Assembly (NCBI RefSeq): GCF_004010195.1
Contig: NC_057718.1
Coordinates: 83,926,924 to 83,990,923, forward strand
Length of the DNA stretch: 64,000 bases
Direction: 5' to 3'
Source: Chiloscyllium plagiosum
Lineage: Eukaryota
The notes beneath the pieces are model-generated. The model saw only the letters and a program-made list of their open reading frames with translations, made no database searches and had not been told where the DNA came from. Shown one piece after another: positions 10,111-54,056 of the stretch. Numbering within the stretch: the stretch's first letter is position 1; each line of letters opens with the position of its first letter. Made by a program: the position numbers and the translations under genes.

Positions 10111-10818
10111 AGTCTGAAGGAAGAAAGAGAAGGGGAAATCTTGAGAATATTAAGGTAGTGGTAGGCGGTCCATAGATAATTTTAAAAGTGATTTGAGAGG
10201 TGTGGAACATATGAGATGCTCAAAGCAGGAAGTAGTGCCACTGAACTGGGCAGAGCAACCAAAATGTGACTTGTATTATGAAGACCCGATCACCATTGAT
10301 TTTTGTTGTTATGAACCGTTTCTGCTTTTTCCTATCTTGAGTAATTACTCATATAAGATATCATCTCAAATGCCAAATTAAGTTTGATTTAAACATTGTG
10401 ACCTTTCATGAGGCTTGATTTCATTTTAGCACTTTAAGGCATTACAATTAATTACCTGTTTGTCTCCTTTTAATTATTTAAAATTAGGGTCTGTATAAAA
10501 TACATTTGCATTGAACTGTTATTCTTTAATTTGTTGCTGTTTGAAATTCAATAAATCCAATATATTACCTTCTGCAGTATTTTCTAGGTCTCTGAACCAA
10601 GTACAGATTTTATTGAAATTTTCAAAGCTCTACCATGATTTCAGTTATGTTTGGGGCTCATCGAAGTTCATGTTAAGCTACAAAGATTTCACTAGATGTA
10701 TGGTTTCCGCAGTTCATGACTGAAATGCACAGTAGTCTGCTTGCAATGAGAATTACATGATACAGTGATAAAAATCACACAACACCAGGTTATAGTCCAA
10801 CAGGTTTAATTGGAAGCA

Positions 10819-10853
10819 CACTAGCTTTCAGAGCGACACTCCTTCATCAGGTG
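10819..10853 (-). ncRNA. Minimal type I hammerhead ribozyme motif (antisense)
   Basis: Reverse complement: CAC-CUGAUGA-A-GGAGU(GUC)GCUCU-GAAA-GCUA^GUG; stem II retained through two G-U pairs. Confidence 0.7.
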
Positions 10854-10878
10854 ATTGTGATGATCACCTGATCACAGT

Positions 10879-10913
10879 CATCTGATGAAGGAGCGTCGCT
10901 CCGAAAGCTCGTG
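10879..10913 (+). ncRNA. Minimal type I hammerhead ribozyme motif (sense to SOS1)
   Basis: CAU-CUGAUGA-A-GGAGC(GUC)GCUCC-GAAA-GCUC^GUG; 5-bp stem II, palindromic AGCU helix III, 3-bp stem I. Confidence 0.75.
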
Positions 10914-12280
10914 TGCTTCCAATTAAACCTGTTGGACTATAACCTGGTGTTGTGTGATTTTTAACTTTGTACACCCCGTCCAACACCGGCATCTCCAAAT
11001 CGTGATACAGTGAAGCTTAGACTTTGCTGAGGTCTCAGAATTGTAACACCTCTAAAGCTATGATTATGTAGTATTCCTGGTTTAATCCAACAAATTGGTT
11101 AATTGCTACACATATTAGTATTTAAAATGGCTCATACATCCAAGAAGAAACATCTTATTTAAGAATATAGTTATTTGTACTAGAGCCAAACGTTCTTCTT
11201 GAAACTTGCCGCATCAGCATTTGAGTCAAAATGCCTCACCACTTCAGCATCAGTTGCGCATTTATTTTGACTGTATTTAACATTTATTTATTTCACAGAT
11301 CAAATGCGTTCAGAATAATAGCAATTTATAGCATGTGAAACCTTCTGAATGCTGTATTGCTTAAGTTCTATCAACTTGTCATTTTTCCTCAATTCTGTAA
11401 GATTTTCATTTTTTTTAAAAAGGAGTTACTGTATGTGCCATAATTAATGAATTTATCAGCATTGTTTATTTTAATTTGTATTTATTGTATCAATGCAGCA
11501 CCTATAATAAAAGAGCAGACTGAATCCAAAGTCACAGTCTGGAGGCCACGCTTGCACTTGGGTTTATCCATTCGAACAAGATTGTATCTATACTATATCA
11601 TTTGTTCAATCATCGCGGAGAACAGTGCGATGTAAATATAATTCTCAAGAGGTTGATAGTATATAGCAACATTGCTGAGAAAAGTCACTTTTGTCATGCA
11701 CTCAATATAAAGTTCAAGAAGAAACCAACATTTATACTGCATGAGAGGAGACAGCTAATTGGTTGGCAAGTGGGCTGTGATGGGCAGAGGCATTGCAGCA
11801 GAGAATTTAACCATTAGTGCTGATTGCCAGTTCACAGTCAGGCTTTGTTTAAGTTTTAAATCAGACAGGTTGACCTGTCCTGAAGAGTACAAAATGAAAA
11901 GCTTTGACAGAATGTATTTTTTCAATAATAGTCATATTCTGTACTACCAAACGATTATTTAGCACTACATGATCATTGGGCTTAAATGTTTCCTGTTTCT
12001 GTATTTGTTCGAGTCGAAATTATATCTGTCTGATTTTAGAGTTTTCACAGATTTGATCAATATTATTTAAGTAGTACAAGGAAATTTTCTTGAAACATCA
12101 AAGAACTGGAGTATTCATGTGTAGGGGAGGATGGCTTGTTGAGATGCATATTCAAATTTTCAGTTTAGTATTCTAAGTAAATTATTGGTACAATTTGAAT
12201 ATGTTAATAAATGTCAGTGTCGTGCAAGTGACTAATAACTGAAATTGCAGAATACAGCTTTATTAAAAATCTGTTTTTAG

Positions 12281-24320: not shown

Positions 24321-25659
24321 TTAAATTAGTCATCTCACGATAAGCATGAATGGTGTTAGGGTCACAAAATTATGTGTTTCCTTCTTCGGCTACTCCACCG
24401 AAGTCAAAATAAGCTTACTGTTTCTCCAGGAATGTGGACTATCACACTTCAGTACTTAGGGACAATGGTGATGGTAGCCCTTTGGCCCACCAATCTGGTG
24501 GGGACGAAATGATTGCTGTTGTTCTGACCCAGGTATCCCGCTATAAGGAGGCAATTTTACTGCCATCAGAGTTAAGGTGGTAGTGGAATGGCTGCCTGCT
24601 TTTCAGGTTTATTAGCTCTTTTTGGCTTTATTGGCTAACTTATAAAACGTAATAGTTTAATACAACTAAAAGTACTTATTTACAGAGTACATTATACATC
24701 CTTGGATGCTTAACTCTCCGATTCAACTGCTGGGCAAGTTCCACACTCATCCAAATTCCCCATTCAGTCCCTGATTGAACTAATGGGTCACATGACTCCT
24801 CCCTCAGAGATCATCTTTAATGGGGTCAACTACTACAAGGTTGATCACCATGTCTGTCCTCATTCTAAGCAACAATTGACTGTCTTATACCAGCTCTCTG
24901 CTACTGCTGGCACCCAAGCTTGTCAGTTTAGGTTGGGAACTCAACTGTGGCATCAATCTGGCAATGCCCACAGCAAAACCAAAGCTATTTTGATTTGATT
25001 CTAATAAATAAGTGTGATATATTCAACAACCGTACAGACCGATGGCTACAAAAATATGTAGTCAAGACCATATGAGCCCATCTGTTTCAGGGTAGGCATT
25101 TTGTTTATGTCCAGAGCACTCAGTCAGATTCAGCATCAAGCCAGTATTTATCTCTGGCCACTCTGTCCTACTGTTTGACTGTCAGGAAGACCAGAAAATT
25201 GGCAGAAGAACATGGAAATTGAATGTGCAAGTGTTGATGTCAGAAAATATTGGGGAACTGAAACTTGAATACAAATGGTGGAGAACTGTGCAACAAACAG
25301 ATGAAGGTGAATACCAGAAAATAACCCTCAACGGTGTTCTAAAGGCAAGAGAGAGAGACACCACACCAAAGGAAATGTCTCAACTCCGGAAACTGAATCA
25401 AAATTTGCTTTTGTAGTGGCTATTGGTCTAAGTTGGAAATGACCACCAATAGGGATAAGACAACAAGTCTCGCTTTTTGACTTCGAAACCTCCCCATTCA
25501 CCTCGAGGTCGTGAGGTGACTTTATTGAACCAGATAAGTGCTTGTAACTCCTCTTCCAAAAGATATACATCTGTCTGATCAGCAGCTTGAAGGCAGTAGG
25601 TGGATTGATCTTGTTATTGACAGCCTGACATAATGGCTGGATCTTATGGGGTTATAAAG

Positions 25660-26275
25660 TTTAAAAAATCACACAACACCAAGTTATAGTCCAACAGATT
25701 TACTTGGAAGCACTAGCTTTCAAAGCGCTGCTCCTTCATCAGATGATTATGGAAAATAAGATTGTAAGGCGCAGAAGTTATAGCAAAAGTTTACAGTGTA
25801 TTGTAACTGAAATTATATATTAAAAAAGACCCGGCGTGTTTAAGTCTCTCATCTTTTAGAATGATCATGTTGGTTTCAGTTCTTTCATATGTAAATTGCA
25901 AAACCTTTTTGAAAAGTTACATTCTCGAGTGCACTTTAACAATTGGTGTCATGTCAGCCCAGATAAGGTATTGAAGGTTTAACTCTCTGAGGCTGTCTGT
26001 GCCACAATGGTCAGACTGATTCTAATCTAAAAAACTGATTTACAGAATCTTACATGGATACATGCAATTTTTGAGCAAAGTAAAATGTAATTCTGCAAGT
26101 ATAAATTCACCCACAAACTTATATGTGTATGTGTGCATGTGGATTTGTGTGTGTGTGTGGGGGAGGGGTGTTATGAGTGTATGTGAGAGAGGGTGTTTTT
26201 TGTGAGAGTGCGATTCTAAAGGGGTTTAAGTCTATGTGTGAGGGTATGAGAGAGGGTCTGATGTGTGTGTATGTA
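25660..26275 (-). mobile_element. Longer family A Penelope-like pseudo-LTR fragment with hammerhead motif
   Basis: Begins AAAAATCACACAACACCAAGTTATAGTCCAACAG as at 10770; minus-strand CAU-CUGAUGA-A-GGAGC(AGC)GCUUU-GAAA-GCUA^GUG at 25711-25745; continues into unique then TG-rich sequence. Confidence 0.7.
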
Positions 26276-47411: not shown

Positions 47412-48732
47412 ATAGAGTCAGAGATGTACAGCATAGAAACAGACCCTTCGGTCCAAACTGTCCAAGCTGACCAGATATCCCAACCCAATCTAGTCTCACC
47501 TGCCAACACCCGGCCCATATCCCTCCAAACCCTTCCTATTCATATCCTATCCAAATGCCTCTTAAATGTTACAATTGTACCAGCCTCCACCACATCTTCT
47601 GGCAGCTCATTCCATACACGTACCACCCTCTGCGAGAAAAAGTTGCCCCTTAGGTCTCTTTTATATCTTTCCCCTCTCAGCCTAAACCTATCCCCTCTAG
47701 TTCTGGATTCCCCGACCCCAGGGAAAAGACTTTGTCTATTTATCCTATCCATGCCCCTCATAATTTTGTAAACCTCTATAAGGTCACCCCNNNNNNNNNN
47801 NNNNNNNNNNNNNNNNNNNNNNNNNNNNNNNNNNNNNNNNNNNNNNNNNNNNNNNNNNNNNNNNNNNNNNNNNNNNNNNNNNNNNNNNNNNNNNNNNNNN
47901 NNNNNNNNNNNNNNNNNNNNNNNNNNNNNNNNNNNNNNNNNNNNNNNNNNNNNNNNNNNNNNNNNNNNNNNNNNNNNNNNNNNNNNNNNNNNNNNNNNNN
48001 NNNNNNNNNNNNNNNNNNNNNNNNNNNNNNNNNNNNNNNNNNNNNNNNNNNNNNNNNNNNNNNNNNNNNNNNNNNNNNNNNNNNNNNNNNNNNNNNNNNN
48101 NNNNNNNNNNNNNNNNNNNNNNNNNNNNNNNNNNNNNNNNNNNNNNNNNNNNNNNNNNNNNNNNNNNNNNNNNNNNNNNNNNNNNNNNNNNNNNNNNNNN
48201 NNNNNNNNNNNNNNNNNNNNNNNNNNNNNNNNNNNNNNNNNNNNNNNNNNNNNNNNNNNNNNNNNNNNNNNNNNNNNNNNNNNNNNNNNNNNNNNNNNNN
48301 NNNNNNNNNNNNNNNNNNNNNNNNNNNNNNNNNNNNNNNNNNNNNNNNNNNNNNNNNNNNNNNNNNNNNNNNNNNNNNNNNNNNNNNNNNNNNNNNNNNN
48401 NNNNNNNNNNNNNNNNNNAGGTCAGGCTCACTGGTCTATAGTTCCCTGGCTTGTGTTTACCGCCCTTCTTAAACAGTGGCACCACATTTGCCAACCTCCA
48501 GTCTTCTGGCACCTCACCTGTGACTATCGATGATACAAATATCTTAGCATGAGGCCCAGCAATCACTTCTCCAGCTTCCCACAGAGTTCTCGGGTACACC
48601 TGATCAGGTCCTGGGGATTTATCCACCTTTAACCGTTTCAAGACATCCAGCACTTCCTCCTATGTAATCTGGACATTTTGCAAGATGTCACCATCTATTT
48701 CCCTACAGTCTATATCTTCCATATCCTTTTCC
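47412..48732 (-). mobile_element. CR1 LINE nested in the 3' end of the host LINE, spanning an assembly gap
   Basis: Minus ORFs 47540..47761 and 48419..48653 (KSPGPDQVYPR..NVVPLFKKG..NYRPVSLT). Confidence 0.85.
47791..48418. other. Assembly gap (628 N)
   Basis: Run of N. Confidence 1.
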
Positions 48733-49865: not shown

Positions 49866-52190
49866 AATCATAGAGATGTACAGCACGGAAACAGACCCTC
49901 TGGTGCAACTCATCCGTGCTGACCAGATATCCTAACTTAATCTAGTCCCATTTGCCAGTACTTGGCCCAAATCCCTGTTAAACCCTTCCTATTCATATAT
50001 CCATCCAGGTGTTTTTTAAATGTTGTAGTTGTACCAGCCTCCAGCATTTGCTGTGGCAGCTCATTCCATACATGAACCACCATCTGAGTGAAAAAGTTAT
50101 CCCTTTTAAATCTTTCCCCTCTCACCTTAAATCTATGCCTTCTAATTCTGGACTCCCCCACCCCAGGGAAATGACCCTCTGTATTTACTCTATCCATGCC
50201 CCTCATGATTTTATAAACCTCTAGAAGTTCACCTCTGTGTCTCTGAAGCTCCAGGGAAAACCGCCCCAGCCTATTCAGCTGCTCCCTACAGCTCAAACTG
50301 CCCAGCCCTGGCAACATTCTTGTAAATCTTTTTGAACCCTTTTGAATTTCACAGCATCCTTCCTATGGGAGGGAAACAGGAATTATATGCAATATTCCGA
50401 AAGTGGTCTTACCAATATCCTGTACAGCTGCAACATGATCGCCCAACAGCTATACTGAATGCTCTGACCAATAAAGGAAAGCATACAAAACACCTTCTTC
50501 ACTATCCCATTCACCTCCGACTCCACTTTCAAGGAAGTGTGAACCTGCACTCTTTGTTCAGCAACACTCCCCAGGACCTGACCATTAAGTATCTACAAGT
50601 CCTGCTCTGATTTGCCTTTCCAAAATGCAGCACTTATCGAAGTTTATCTAAGTTAAACTGCATCTACTAATCATGGCCCATTGGCCCATCTGATCAAGAT
50701 CCTGTTGTAATCTAAGGCAACCTCTTCGGTGTCCACTACACCTCCAGTTTTGCTGTCATCTGCAAACTTACTAACTCTATCTCTTATGTTCACATCCAGA
50801 TCATTTATTTAAATGACAAAAAGCAGTGGACCAGCAATGATCCTTGTGGCACACCACTGGTCACAGGTCTCCAGTCTGAAAAGAAACATTCTACGATCAC
50901 CATTTGTCTTCTATCATCAAGTCAATTCTGTATCCAAATGGCTAGTTCTCCCAGTATTCTATGTGATCTAACCTTGCTAACCAGTCTCCCATGGAAAACC
51001 TTATCGAATTCCTTGCTGAAGTCCATATAGATCAAATCCACCACGCTGCCCTTATCAATCCTCTTCGTTACTTCTTCAAAAAACTCAATCAAGTTTGTCA
51101 ATTAGTGTTAACTATCCCTAATCAGTCCTTGCCTTTCCAAAAATGTAAATTCTGACTCTCAGGATTTCTTCCAACCACTTGCCCACCATTGATGTCGGGC
51201 TCACCGGTGTAAAGTTCGCTGACTTTTCCTTATCACCTATTTTAAATAGTGGCACCACATTAGCCCACTCCCAATTTTCCTGTGCCTCACATGTGACTGT
51301 TGTTGATAAATTATCTCAGCAACAGGCCCAGCAGTCACTTCCCAAGCTTCCCACAGAGTTCTCGGGAAAACCTGATCTGGTCCTGGGGATTTAGCATCCT
51401 TTGTGCGTTTTCAGGCATCCAGCACCACCATCTCTTTAATATGAGCATTTTTCAAGATGTCACCATTTATTTACCCACATCCTATACCTTCCATGTGCTT
51501 TTCCACAGTAAACACTGATGCAAAATATTTGTTTCATATCTCCCCCGGGGACGGGGGAAAGTGGAGGGAGGGATTGGATTGGGGAGGAAGGGAGATGGGT
51601 GGGGGGGAAGGGGTGTGGCGGGGAAGANNNNNNNNNNNNNNNNNNNNNNNNNNNNNNNNNNNNNNNNNNNNNNNNNNNNNNNNNNNNNNNNNNNNNNNNN
51701 NNNNNNNNNNNNNNNNNNNNNNNNNNNNNNNNNNNNNNNNNNNNNNNNNNNNNNNNNNNNNNNNNNNNNNNNNNNNNNNNNNNNNNNNNNNNNNNNNNNN
51801 NNNNNNNNNNNNNNNNNNNNNNNNNNNNNNNNNNNNNNNNNNNNNNNNNNNNNNNNNNNNNNNNNNNNNNNGGCAGGGAAAGGTGGGGTGGAGAGGAAGT
51901 GGGGGGAGTGGAGGGTGGTAAGATGGGGGGGGGGACGTATTCCCAGGAGTATCCTCCCTAAGTACAGCTGTAATATTATCCCTGATCAAAAATGGCAAAG
52001 TTCCCTAGATTCACCACCCCTCCACCACCGCCACCACCACCACCACCACCATCACCCACCCCACCTTATTAGTTTAAATTCTCCCAAGCCGCTGTCGCAA
52101 ATCTACCTTCCCCTTCCAATTCAGGTGCAATCTGTAACCTTCTTATACAGGACACTTCTACCCTAGAAGAGATTCCAATCATCCGAAAAT
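49866..52190 (-). mobile_element. CR1 LINE nested antisense, containing a G-rich tract and gap
   Basis: Minus ORF 49937..50317; RT remnants 50700-51100; tail atcatagagatgtacagcac on +. Confidence 0.8.
51628..51871. other. Assembly gap (244 N) within a G-rich low-complexity tract
   Basis: Run of N flanked by G runs over 51545-51935. Confidence 1.
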
Positions 52191-53577: not shown

Positions 53578-54056
53578 CTGCACTTCAGATAAAGGTCTTT
53601 AGAGTCCTCACTGACCCAGACTCCGTAACCTCACATTTACCATGGCTAATCCACCTAGTTTGCATATCCCTGGACACAACGGGACAATTTAGTAAACCCA
53701 ATTCATCTAACCTCCACATGTTTGAACTGTGGGAGAGAATCAGAGGGCCTAGCAGAAACCAACACAGACAACTCAACACAGGTTAAAAATCACGCGACGC
53801 AAGTTGATAATCCGATGGGTTTATTGGAAACACTAGTTTTTGGCATGCCGCGCTGCTCCTTCATTAAGTGTTAGTGCTCCGAAAGCTAGTATTTTCAAAT
53901 AAACCCGTTGGACTACAAACTGGTGTTGTGATTTTTGACCTTGTCCAACCCAGTCCAATACTGGCACCTCCACATCAAACTCCACACAGTCACCCGAGAC
54001 TGGAATTGAACCCGGGTCCTCAGCACTTGAGGCAGCAGTGCTAACCACTGTACCAA
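53578..54056 (-). mobile_element. HE1-type SINE split by a family A fold-back insertion
   Basis: Head on minus (GAGGCAGCAGTGCTAACCACTG on +) at 53978-54056; body at 53578-53781. Confidence 0.8.
53782..53977. mobile_element. Older family A fold-back insertion with decayed hammerhead motifs
   Basis: TSD AACTC(A/C)ACACAG at 53770-53781 and 53978-53989; arms GTTAAAAATCAC... / ...GTGATTTTTGAC; tail TTGTCCAACCCAGTCCAATACTGGCACCTCCACATC. Confidence 0.75.

Follow-up and report, generated by a model that had tools for sequence, protein, structure and literature searches.

What kind of element leaves behind a 234-bp fold-back sequence with a hammerhead ribozyme core on each strand and short direct repeats at its borders? 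Such an insert, together with its repeats, occupies positions 10758-11013 of a 64,000-nt stretch of the genome of the shark Chiloscyllium plagiosum (contig NC_057718.1), a stretch called here the window, to which all locus coordinates refer. A preliminary description, made from the sequence, regarded it as a non-coding, ribozyme-bearing mobile unit, either retrozyme-like or an abortive Penelope insertion, that looks like a miniature inverted-repeat transposable element (MITE) and is probably mobilised through RNA. The insert is best read, with a probability of roughly 85%, as a non-coding head-to-head pair of the ~130-nt leader of an endonuclease-bearing (EN+) Penelope-like element (PLE), likely originated in one abortive event of target-primed reverse transcription. 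It is a dead-end stub, one of thousands in this shark genome, and its hammerhead is a passenger from the parent leader, whose cutting is not needed for stub formation. The window locus itself is ordinary repeat debris, and its value is that of a readable example of a population of at least 6,530 members. The ends of these stubs constrain the start of the element RNA, the start of reverse transcription on each strand, and the use of ribozyme-cut RNA as a template, in a copying mechanism that is so far known mostly from one in vitro study.

Architecture of the locus and of its population

The insert is bordered by an exact 11-bp direct repeat, TGATACAGTGA, whose two copies (10758-10768 and 11003-11013, 100% identical) form the target site duplication (TSD). 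The 234 bp between them consist of two inverted arms and a one-sided tail of 39 nt, an arrangement that had been described before and is confirmed here by repeat comparison and base-by-base reading. The former pairs 10761-10861 with 10871-10971 (101 nt, 92% complementary), and the latter places the symmetric part of the arms at 10769-10859 and 10873-10963. Unit positions are counted here from C3 of the CUGAUGA motif as 0. The left arm (10769-10859) is an inverted copy of the PLE pseudo-LTR (pseudo-long terminal repeat) leader, with its sense strand on the minus strand, and spans from ~-9 at its inner end (10859) to +81 at its outer end (10769, the short 'site A' end). The right arm (10873-10963, plus strand) holds the same leader in sense orientation, also from ~-9 to +81, and is supported by the base-by-base reading, the inverted repeat and the alignment of copies. 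It is followed by the tail (10964-11002, plus strand), which fills the interval separating the two outer-end clusters described below and extends to the parent start codon. The arms are separated by a junction filler of 13 nt, ATGATCACCTGAT (10860-10872), a partial echo of the near-palindrome AUCACCUGAU located at -5 to +4. The right boundary between element and TSD is uncertain by ~3 nt, because 'TGA' fits both the end of the element (...ATCATGA) and the repeat. Contigs from other sequencing runs support the flank-element junctions (X9, covering 10450-10795 and 10979-11341; X1, covering 10450-10798), and no single contig of those runs spans the whole hairpin.

The assembly searched for related copies comprises 3.56 Gb in 101,977 contigs. 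The 234-bp query yielded 3,181 first-look candidates, and all 40 of the 40 matches that were scored are 88-93% identical over nearly the full length, these near-full-length matches being selected by their likeness to the query. An alignment of 30 copies shows that the basic unit is the right arm plus the tail; the left arm is an inverted copy with a variable outer end, which sometimes reaches into the tail sequence. Because those 30 copies had been chosen by likeness, a junction-free sample was also taken, defined by a 15-nt anchor word in each arm and a distance of up to 200 nt between the two words. This head-to-head pattern occurs at least 6,530 times in the genome, a lower bound for head-to-head stubs since it counts only fold-backs with exact anchors, and the reversed control pattern does not occur at all. 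The first 40 of these matches, all from one chromosome arm region of contig 1 (C1), make up the 40-locus sample used throughout.

In this sample, as in the alignment, the centre of the fold-back varies in length and content. The spacing between arms ranges from 22 to 147 nt in the junction-free sample, the inner ends are scattered, the fillers differ, and many junctions carry a filler of 0-4 nt. A few junctions inspected by eye have no consistent extra G of the kind a cap might leave. Such variation implies that the copies do not descend from one hairpin master, and the differences in both inner and outer ends from copy to copy imply that each stub is a separate by-product. The idea of a distinct mobile unit that propagates as such is therefore not borne out.

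The parent Penelope-like element

The identity of the arms follows from what lies beyond them in other copies. The 3' end of the unit (...GAATCATGAC) runs on into further shared sequence, a continuation revealed by 14 exact matches to a head-to-tail pattern and found in 594 first-look candidates, of which 40 were scored at 94-100%. An ATG inside ATCATGAC, at the end of the unit, opens a common frame (MTTIDTTN...) in 29 of the 30 loci fetched. This start codon of the open reading frame (ORF), defined at the unit-ORF junction loci, lies at +121 from the ribozyme core, and the arm represents the last ~130 nt before it. In 28 loci, a stop follows after 8-196 open codons; in one more, the frame runs into N.

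The preliminary description had proposed looking for longer copies linked to a Penelope reverse transcriptase and GIY-YIG endonuclease, and such copies exist. In two near-full copies (L076 and L078), the unit stands at either end of a body of ~3.1-3.4 kb, and both copies match the Pfam reverse transcriptase family RVT_1 (L078:706-2337, E 6.4e-8; L076:661-1770, E 7.2e-7). A C-terminal piece of the ORF (P0002) aligns with positions 633-795 of a turtle protein (P0025) at 41% identity (E 2e-39), and the Pfam GIY-YIG match of that protein, at residues 695-760, falls within the aligned stretch. Before and within this endonuclease region, the piece holds a C-x4-C-x2-C motif (C-HGGR-C-KT-C) followed by ...IVYLILC...WYIGET...GH. 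The Pfam GIY-YIG model (PF01541) is too weak for PLE endonucleases: searched against the genome, it gave one marginal match unrelated to the element, and the ORF was reached from the unit instead. Pfam assigned no family to the first ORF pieces or to the endonuclease piece on its own, and the endonuclease was identified by way of the turtle homologue. The nearest proteins in the large collection searched are from sharks (Heptranchias, Scyliorhinus, Chiloscyllium, Hemiscyllium and Mustelus, 76-89% identity), followed by turtle and invertebrate proteins at ~40% identity.

Since the arm sequence enters an ORF for reverse transcriptase and GIY-YIG endonuclease and recurs ~3.1-3.4 kb downstream of it, the arms are the pseudo-LTR leader of this element, and the branch of the preliminary description that invoked an abortive Penelope insertion holds. 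Judged by its sequence, the parent is a canonical endonuclease-bearing PLE of ~3.3 kb, with predicted reverse transcriptase and GIY-YIG domains. A CX2-5CxxC linker upstream of the GIY-YIG domain characterises the Neptune and Nematis clades according to excerpts of Craig et al. 2021 (PMC8557442), and the linker motif of the shark element suggests a parent of the Neptune type. This source, as well as Cervera and De la Pena 2014 (PMC4209133), the preprint of Li et al. 2026 (10.64898/2026.07.22.740005) and PMC8455134, is cited throughout from excerpts.

Three of the unit-ORF junction loci (L060, L069 and L070) keep ~110-130 nt from the start of the ORF, immediately followed by the 3' untranslated region just ahead of the downstream hammerhead; they are copies altered by internal deletion or template switching, and the junction differs from one to the next. 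Besides, runs of N are present in the window (47791-48418 and 51628-51871) and in the loci L048, L049, L053, L073, L077 and others. In the fetched loci, these runs interrupt the ORF of the retroelement, and they restricted the search for an intact parent.

Insertion signature across the population

The flanks of the sampled stubs carry an insertion signature. Direct repeats of 11-18 nt (at most one mismatch) flank 31 of the 40 loci; one locus has a repeat of 8 nt, and none was found in the remaining eight. Among 192 pairs of mismatched flanks used as a null, no repeat of 9 nt or more was present. The count of 10-15 bp duplications that had been proposed as a check thus gives repeats of 11-18 bp in most of the sample.

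The outer ends are equally informative. In 36 of the 40 loci, one arm ends between +78 and +91 and the other between +115 and +148, the exceptions being L094, L098, L108 and L113; the outer end of the left arm at the window locus falls within the first of these clusters. The three marks of an EN+ PLE insertion are thus all present: an inverted 5'-truncated copy, a one-sided tail of 30-40 bp and a TSD of variable length. According to Craig et al. 2021, in excerpt, an inverted truncated copy with a 30-40 bp tail at one end is standard for PLEs, and Frangieh et al. 2024 (PMC11167929) explain this tail as the stretch between two internal start sites of reverse transcription.

The inner ends behave differently. 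Mapped by anchored alignment, with an uncertainty of a few nucleotides, 44 of the 80 fall between -12 and +2, 19 between +3 and +25, 4 between +26 and +32, 1 between +33 and +40, and 12 below -13. Only 4 of the 80 therefore lie near the ribozyme cut (+28/+29). Most stubs run through the entire ribozyme and end ~30 nt downstream of a TATA box, not at the cut.

The hammerhead motif and its activity

The hammerheads were searched for with a descriptor of the minimal hammerhead ribozyme (min-HHR), a scan that had been suggested beforehand. It comprises CUGANGA, an optional extra nucleotide, a stem II of 4-8 bp, a loop of 3-8 nt, GAAA and a complementary 15.2/16.2 pair followed by U and H. The window holds three matches, at 10882-10910 on the plus strand and at 10822-10850 and 25714-25742 on the minus strand, compared with a chance expectation of 0.005 per shuffled window (first-order Markov, both strands, 200 shuffles). 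The coordinates and cut positions first proposed for both strands were reproduced. The plus-strand motif reads CAU / CUGAUGA-A-GGAGC-GUC-GCUCC-GAAA-GCU-C / GUG (10879-10913, predicted cut after 10910), and the minus-strand motif CAC / CUGAUGA-A-GGAGU-GUC-GCUCU-GAAA-GCU-A / GUG (10819-10853, predicted cut after 10822). The second is no independent observation, because the inverted repeat mirrors the first.

Both strands hold the CUGANGA...GAAA core with U16.1-H17 before the cut, H17 being C on the plus strand and A, the family majority, on the minus strand. Stem I has only 3 bp in both motifs, as had been noted. The extra nucleotide after A9 and the G10.1-C11.1 pair are present on the plus strand and in the family majority line, and on the minus strand the 10.1-11.1 pair is G-U after a CpG transition. 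Helix III is missing, and a palindromic AGCU (A15.1-G-C-U16.1) takes its place, with a predicted capability to act as a dimer. These traits match those listed in excerpts of Cervera and De la Pena 2014 for the min-HHRs of PLEs: the extra nucleotide after A9, G10.1-C11.1, the palindromic 15.2-16.2, a short helix I and no helix III. The core, the extra nucleotide, the AGCU and the location in the pseudo-LTR of an element with reverse transcriptase and GIY-YIG domains place the motif in that group, so that its original assignment as a Penelope-type minimal type I hammerhead stands. It is an already described, ordinary PLE feature.

Rfam does not recognise it. At the gathering score there is no match in the whole window, and in the proposed search with hammerhead models the 21 matches that 10700-11060 yields at E up to 10 include no hammerhead family, as expected from the lack of helix III. 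The sub-threshold matches on the element are only microRNA (miRNA)- and small nucleolar RNA-like hairpins, such as MIR845_1 at 38 bits for a gathering score of 81. Structure-based annotation tools may thus take these stubs for MITEs or miRNA hairpins, and the hammerhead models of Rfam miss them.

The ribozyme at the window locus is almost certainly non-functional, as modelling buries it in a ~100-bp hairpin. This judgement is based on the hairpin energy (minimum free energy -163.8 kcal/mol, z = -26.7), on the lack of RNA reads over the unique flanks, and on CpG-type differences between the arms. A ViennaRNA fold of two 55-nt copies of the motif did not return the hammerhead as its optimum. The preliminary description had noted that the differences between the arms leave stem II paired through G-U. 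In the minus-strand copy, these G-U pairs derive from two G>A changes at CpG sites of the plus strand. The two arms differ by G>A or C>T transitions at CpG sites, the kind expected from neutral decay, not covariation.

The proposed test of conservation showed no preference for the ribozyme: across 167 copies of the unit, the ribozyme columns are no better kept than the rest. Every column is 90-99% conserved, the lowest being CpG sites, and divergence is too small for covariation testing; no preferential conservation is visible because the family is too young to tell. In an older subfamily, loop II is changed and the TG after the cut site is deleted, while stem II is unchanged. Within the 40-locus sample, motifs positive by the descriptor are present on both strands in 4 loci, on one strand in 19 and on neither in 17.

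Indirect evidence for cleavage of the parent RNA comes from two chimeras with U6 small nuclear RNA (snRNA) elsewhere in the genome, both joined exactly at the predicted cut (+29). In the first (L119:986-1062, minus strand; C52879), the 3' half of U6 and its terminal U-run are followed by GUGUGCUUCC, which corresponds to +29. Its Rfam U6 match (37.9 bits, E 1.7e-8, model positions 55-105) does not reach the gathering score of 44, as the locus holds just half of the RNA. The second (L120:215-320; C30:18155950-18156500) is an older-subfamily fold-back, and each of its arms has 23-29 nt of the U6 3' end joined to GUGCUUCC. Control patterns joining the U6 end to unit words at 0 to +16 and at +45 to +61 had no match each. 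The chimeras, two cases only, suggest an RNA 5' end at the predicted bond, that is, occasional cleavage of the parent RNA in vivo, and its ribozyme probably cuts at least sometimes. In the second case, a single rare chimeric RNA seems to have given rise to both arms, unless one arm was copied from its partner.

Candidate promoter and polyadenylation site

A TATAAA sequence lies at -38 to -33 in 24 of the 32 copies that carry the upstream region (e.g. L061:1345-1350). Located ~30 nt before the pile-up of inner ends, it is a candidate promoter of the element, and transcription would probably start ~8 nt upstream of the ribozyme core. The hammerhead itself follows at 0 to +28 by the descriptor, with the predicted cut between +28 and +29. 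Sequence reading then reveals an AUUAAA polyadenylation signal at +40 to +45 (10922-10927 on the plus strand, mirrored at 10805-10810 on the minus strand).

In the raw reads of X12, a single-cell poly(A) RNA run from C. plagiosum, 554 reads carry a non-templated poly(A) tail 12-15 nt past AUUAAA, after +57 (248 reads) or +60 (306 reads; L061:1440-1443). The left arm in the window shows the corresponding loose poly(T) ends before 10790 (71 reads) and 10793 (31 reads). All these reads come from other copies. The 220 reads of X12 on the window repeat leave zero depth on its unique flanks, and run X13 has no reads aligned to the unit. Only ~30 nt separate the poly(A) site from the predicted cut before it, and the two clusters of outer ends both lie downstream of the site.

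Proposed origin and competing explanations

The preferred origin, abortive target-primed reverse transcription of the PLE leader, would proceed in the following way. The element RNA would start ~8 nt before the ribozyme core, ~30 nt after TATAAA, and the element endonuclease would cut the target with a stagger, of 11 bp at the window locus. Reverse transcription would then begin inside the element RNA at two sites ~39 nt apart, one per arm. The ends observed cluster near +85 and near +125, and the former would be the start for one strand and the latter for the other. Both complementary DNAs (cDNAs) would run off the common 5' end of the RNA, ~8 nt upstream of the ribozyme core, and their ends would be joined with a few filler bases, in line with the variable filler observed. 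The proposal of two sites fits the two internal start sites shown in vitro for the PLE of Anolis, where both strands are extended and ribozyme mutants have no effect on insertion (PMC11167929). With the poly(A) site placed before both end clusters, the start sites would be present only in the 5' leader of an ordinary polyadenylated mRNA. This may be the reason for the large excess of leader-only stubs (at least 6,530) over copies with the start of the ORF (594 candidates).

Several points weigh against this origin. The start of the RNA at about -8 is deduced only from the pile-up of ends and the spacing to the TATA box; no pile of read starts is seen in the single-cell RNA library, whose design cannot show 5' ends or ribozyme cuts. 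The pile-up may have another cause, the pairing of two cDNA ends at the near-palindrome (-5 to +4). Moreover, the inner-end positions are uncertain by a few nucleotides, several values below -13 being overshoots across the palindrome, and the 40-locus sample represents one chromosome arm region of C1. The combination of a short and a long end (36 of 40) is not predicted by the published lack of a strand difference in start site, and the U6 piece in both arms of L120 argues for one RNA or for copying of one arm from the other, not for two independent RNAs. Finally, none of the copies seen has an uninterrupted full ORF, which leaves current activity of the parent conjectural.

A more ambitious joint reading is tentative and rather doubtful as a whole. 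It would take the stubs as natural records of the PLE life cycle, of a kind that bench work has yet to supply, with inner ends marking the capped start of the RNA ~8 nt before the ribozyme, and with the two strands always primed at different sites, one short and one long, probably on one RNA. An ordinary mRNA with the start sites only in its 5' leader, owing to the poly(A) site ~30 nt past the cut, would account for the excess of stubs, and the U6 chimeras would reflect cutting in the germ line.

A very unlikely competitor proposes a snap-back, in which the reverse transcriptase turns at the 5' end of the RNA and copies its own cDNA, with no separate priming on both cut strands, so that the whole stub would originate from a single cDNA. 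The presence of the same rare U6-PLE chimera in both arms of L120 is most easily obtained by arm-from-arm copying or from one RNA, and the many junctions with 0-4 nt of filler also fit. However, a simple snap-back should give equal arms, and in 36 of the 40 loci the second arm is shorter by ~39 nt; in several copies, the arm on the side without the tail reaches further inward than the other. In vitro, moreover, both strands are cut and extended by the protein of the Anolis PLE (PMC11167929).

Improbable to a similar or slightly greater degree is a non-autonomous retrozyme-like family, whose fold-back or tandem form would be transcribed, cut by the hammerhead, perhaps circularised, and copied by PLE proteins. 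The high copy number, with the 3,181 first-look candidates and the 40 of 40 scored at 88-93% near full length, would agree with it, as would the existence of some head-to-tail arrangements (the 14 exact pattern matches) and the derivation of animal non-LTR retrozymes from PLE pseudo-LTRs in the excerpts of the preprint (10.64898/2026.07.22.740005). The near-full-length matches, however, were picked by likeness to the query, and the spacing of 22-147 nt, the scattered inner ends and the differing fillers leave no room for a single hairpin master. A hairpin RNA of -164 kcal/mol does not let the ribozyme fold, and the unique flanks of the window locus are touched by no RNA read. At that locus, two units stand head to head once, with no tandem repetition, and genome-wide the head-to-tail pattern has 14 matches against 6,530 head-to-head, the two patterns differing in stringency, so that the retrozyme-like alternative of the preliminary description is disfavoured.

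Under the MITE reading, which can hardly be entertained, a transposase would have moved a non-autonomous DNA transposon whose terminal inverted repeats (TIRs) measure ~100 bp, and the hammerhead match would be incidental. The fold-back shape and flanking direct repeats resemble those of a MITE and Rfam offers only the weak miRNA-hairpin-like matches, but TSDs vary from 11 to 18 nt, 36 of 40 loci are asymmetric with a one-sided tail, the 'TIR' is the leader and 3' end of a reverse transcriptase/GIY-YIG element, and three hammerhead motifs were found where 0.005 were expected per window. A MITE identity is thus contradicted by the variable TSDs together with the retroelement parentage of the arms. 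A MITE would call for TSDs of fixed length and TIRs shared with a transposase-encoding element. The earlier view of a MITE look-alike that arose through RNA, with no DNA transposase, is upheld by the same two observations.

Relation to known systems

All the essentials of this locus are already in print: the min-HHRs in PLE pseudo-LTRs, the inverted truncated copies, the one-sided tails and the two start sites. The complex insertions of EN+ PLEs (PMC11167929, and PMC8557442 in excerpt) likewise show an inverted 5'-truncated copy abutting the unit, a tail of 30-40 bp at one end (39 nt at the window locus), variable TSDs and a pseudo-LTR hammerhead, and the shark outer ends form two clusters ~39 nt apart, comparable to the start sites of Anolis. 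In contrast to those insertions, the window locus is an extreme short form with no ORF and ~90-130 nt per arm, the shark hammerhead lies ~120 nt upstream of the start codon, and its long ends cluster about the start codon instead of 111-118 nt inside the ORF.

The min-HHRs of PLEs (PMC4209133, from excerpts) share with the shark motif the CUGAUGA...GAAA core, the unpaired nucleotide between A9 and 10.1, the G10.1-C11.1 pair, the lack of helix III, the palindromic A-G-C-U and the short helix I. They too are present as thousands of solo genomic copies, as in the coelacanth and Xenopus genomes, some of them paired on opposite strands, such as those ~100-700 bp apart in Schistosoma mansoni. Unlike the Schistosoma ribozymes, with a stem II of 7-8 bp, the shark motif has a stem II of 5 bp and a helix I of 3 bp, is known from its sequence alone, and matches no Rfam hammerhead family. 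PLE hammerheads are described in the same excerpts as cleaving poorly in vitro and only as dimers, and PMC11167929 reports cleavage only with the protein of the element.

Animal non-LTR retrozymes, according to the excerpts of Li et al. 2026, are also small non-coding repeats with type I hammerheads, related to PLE pseudo-LTRs and dependent on PLE proteins; those, however, are head-to-tail arrays giving circular RNAs, whereas the window locus is a head-to-head pair giving a hairpin RNA. The two U6 chimeras resemble the U6/LINE-1 chimeric pseudogenes in that the 3' end of the U6 snRNA is joined to retroelement sequence. Here the partner is a PLE leader instead of L1, and the junction lies exactly at the predicted hammerhead cut. 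Penelope is listed for shark genomes at the superfamily level (PMC8455134, in excerpt), and no description of this shark PLE family was found in the literature on PLE hammerheads or shark Penelope, with supplementary tables, Repbase and Dfam outside the scope of that search.

Other copies in the window

Related copies elsewhere in the window are 72-88% identical to the unit. An older, shorter fold-back of a related subfamily lies at 25648-25751 (blastn, 86-88%) and carries the third descriptor-positive hammerhead (25714-25742, minus strand). Further decayed copies of the unit, at 72-83% identity by blastn, are located at 53782-53976.

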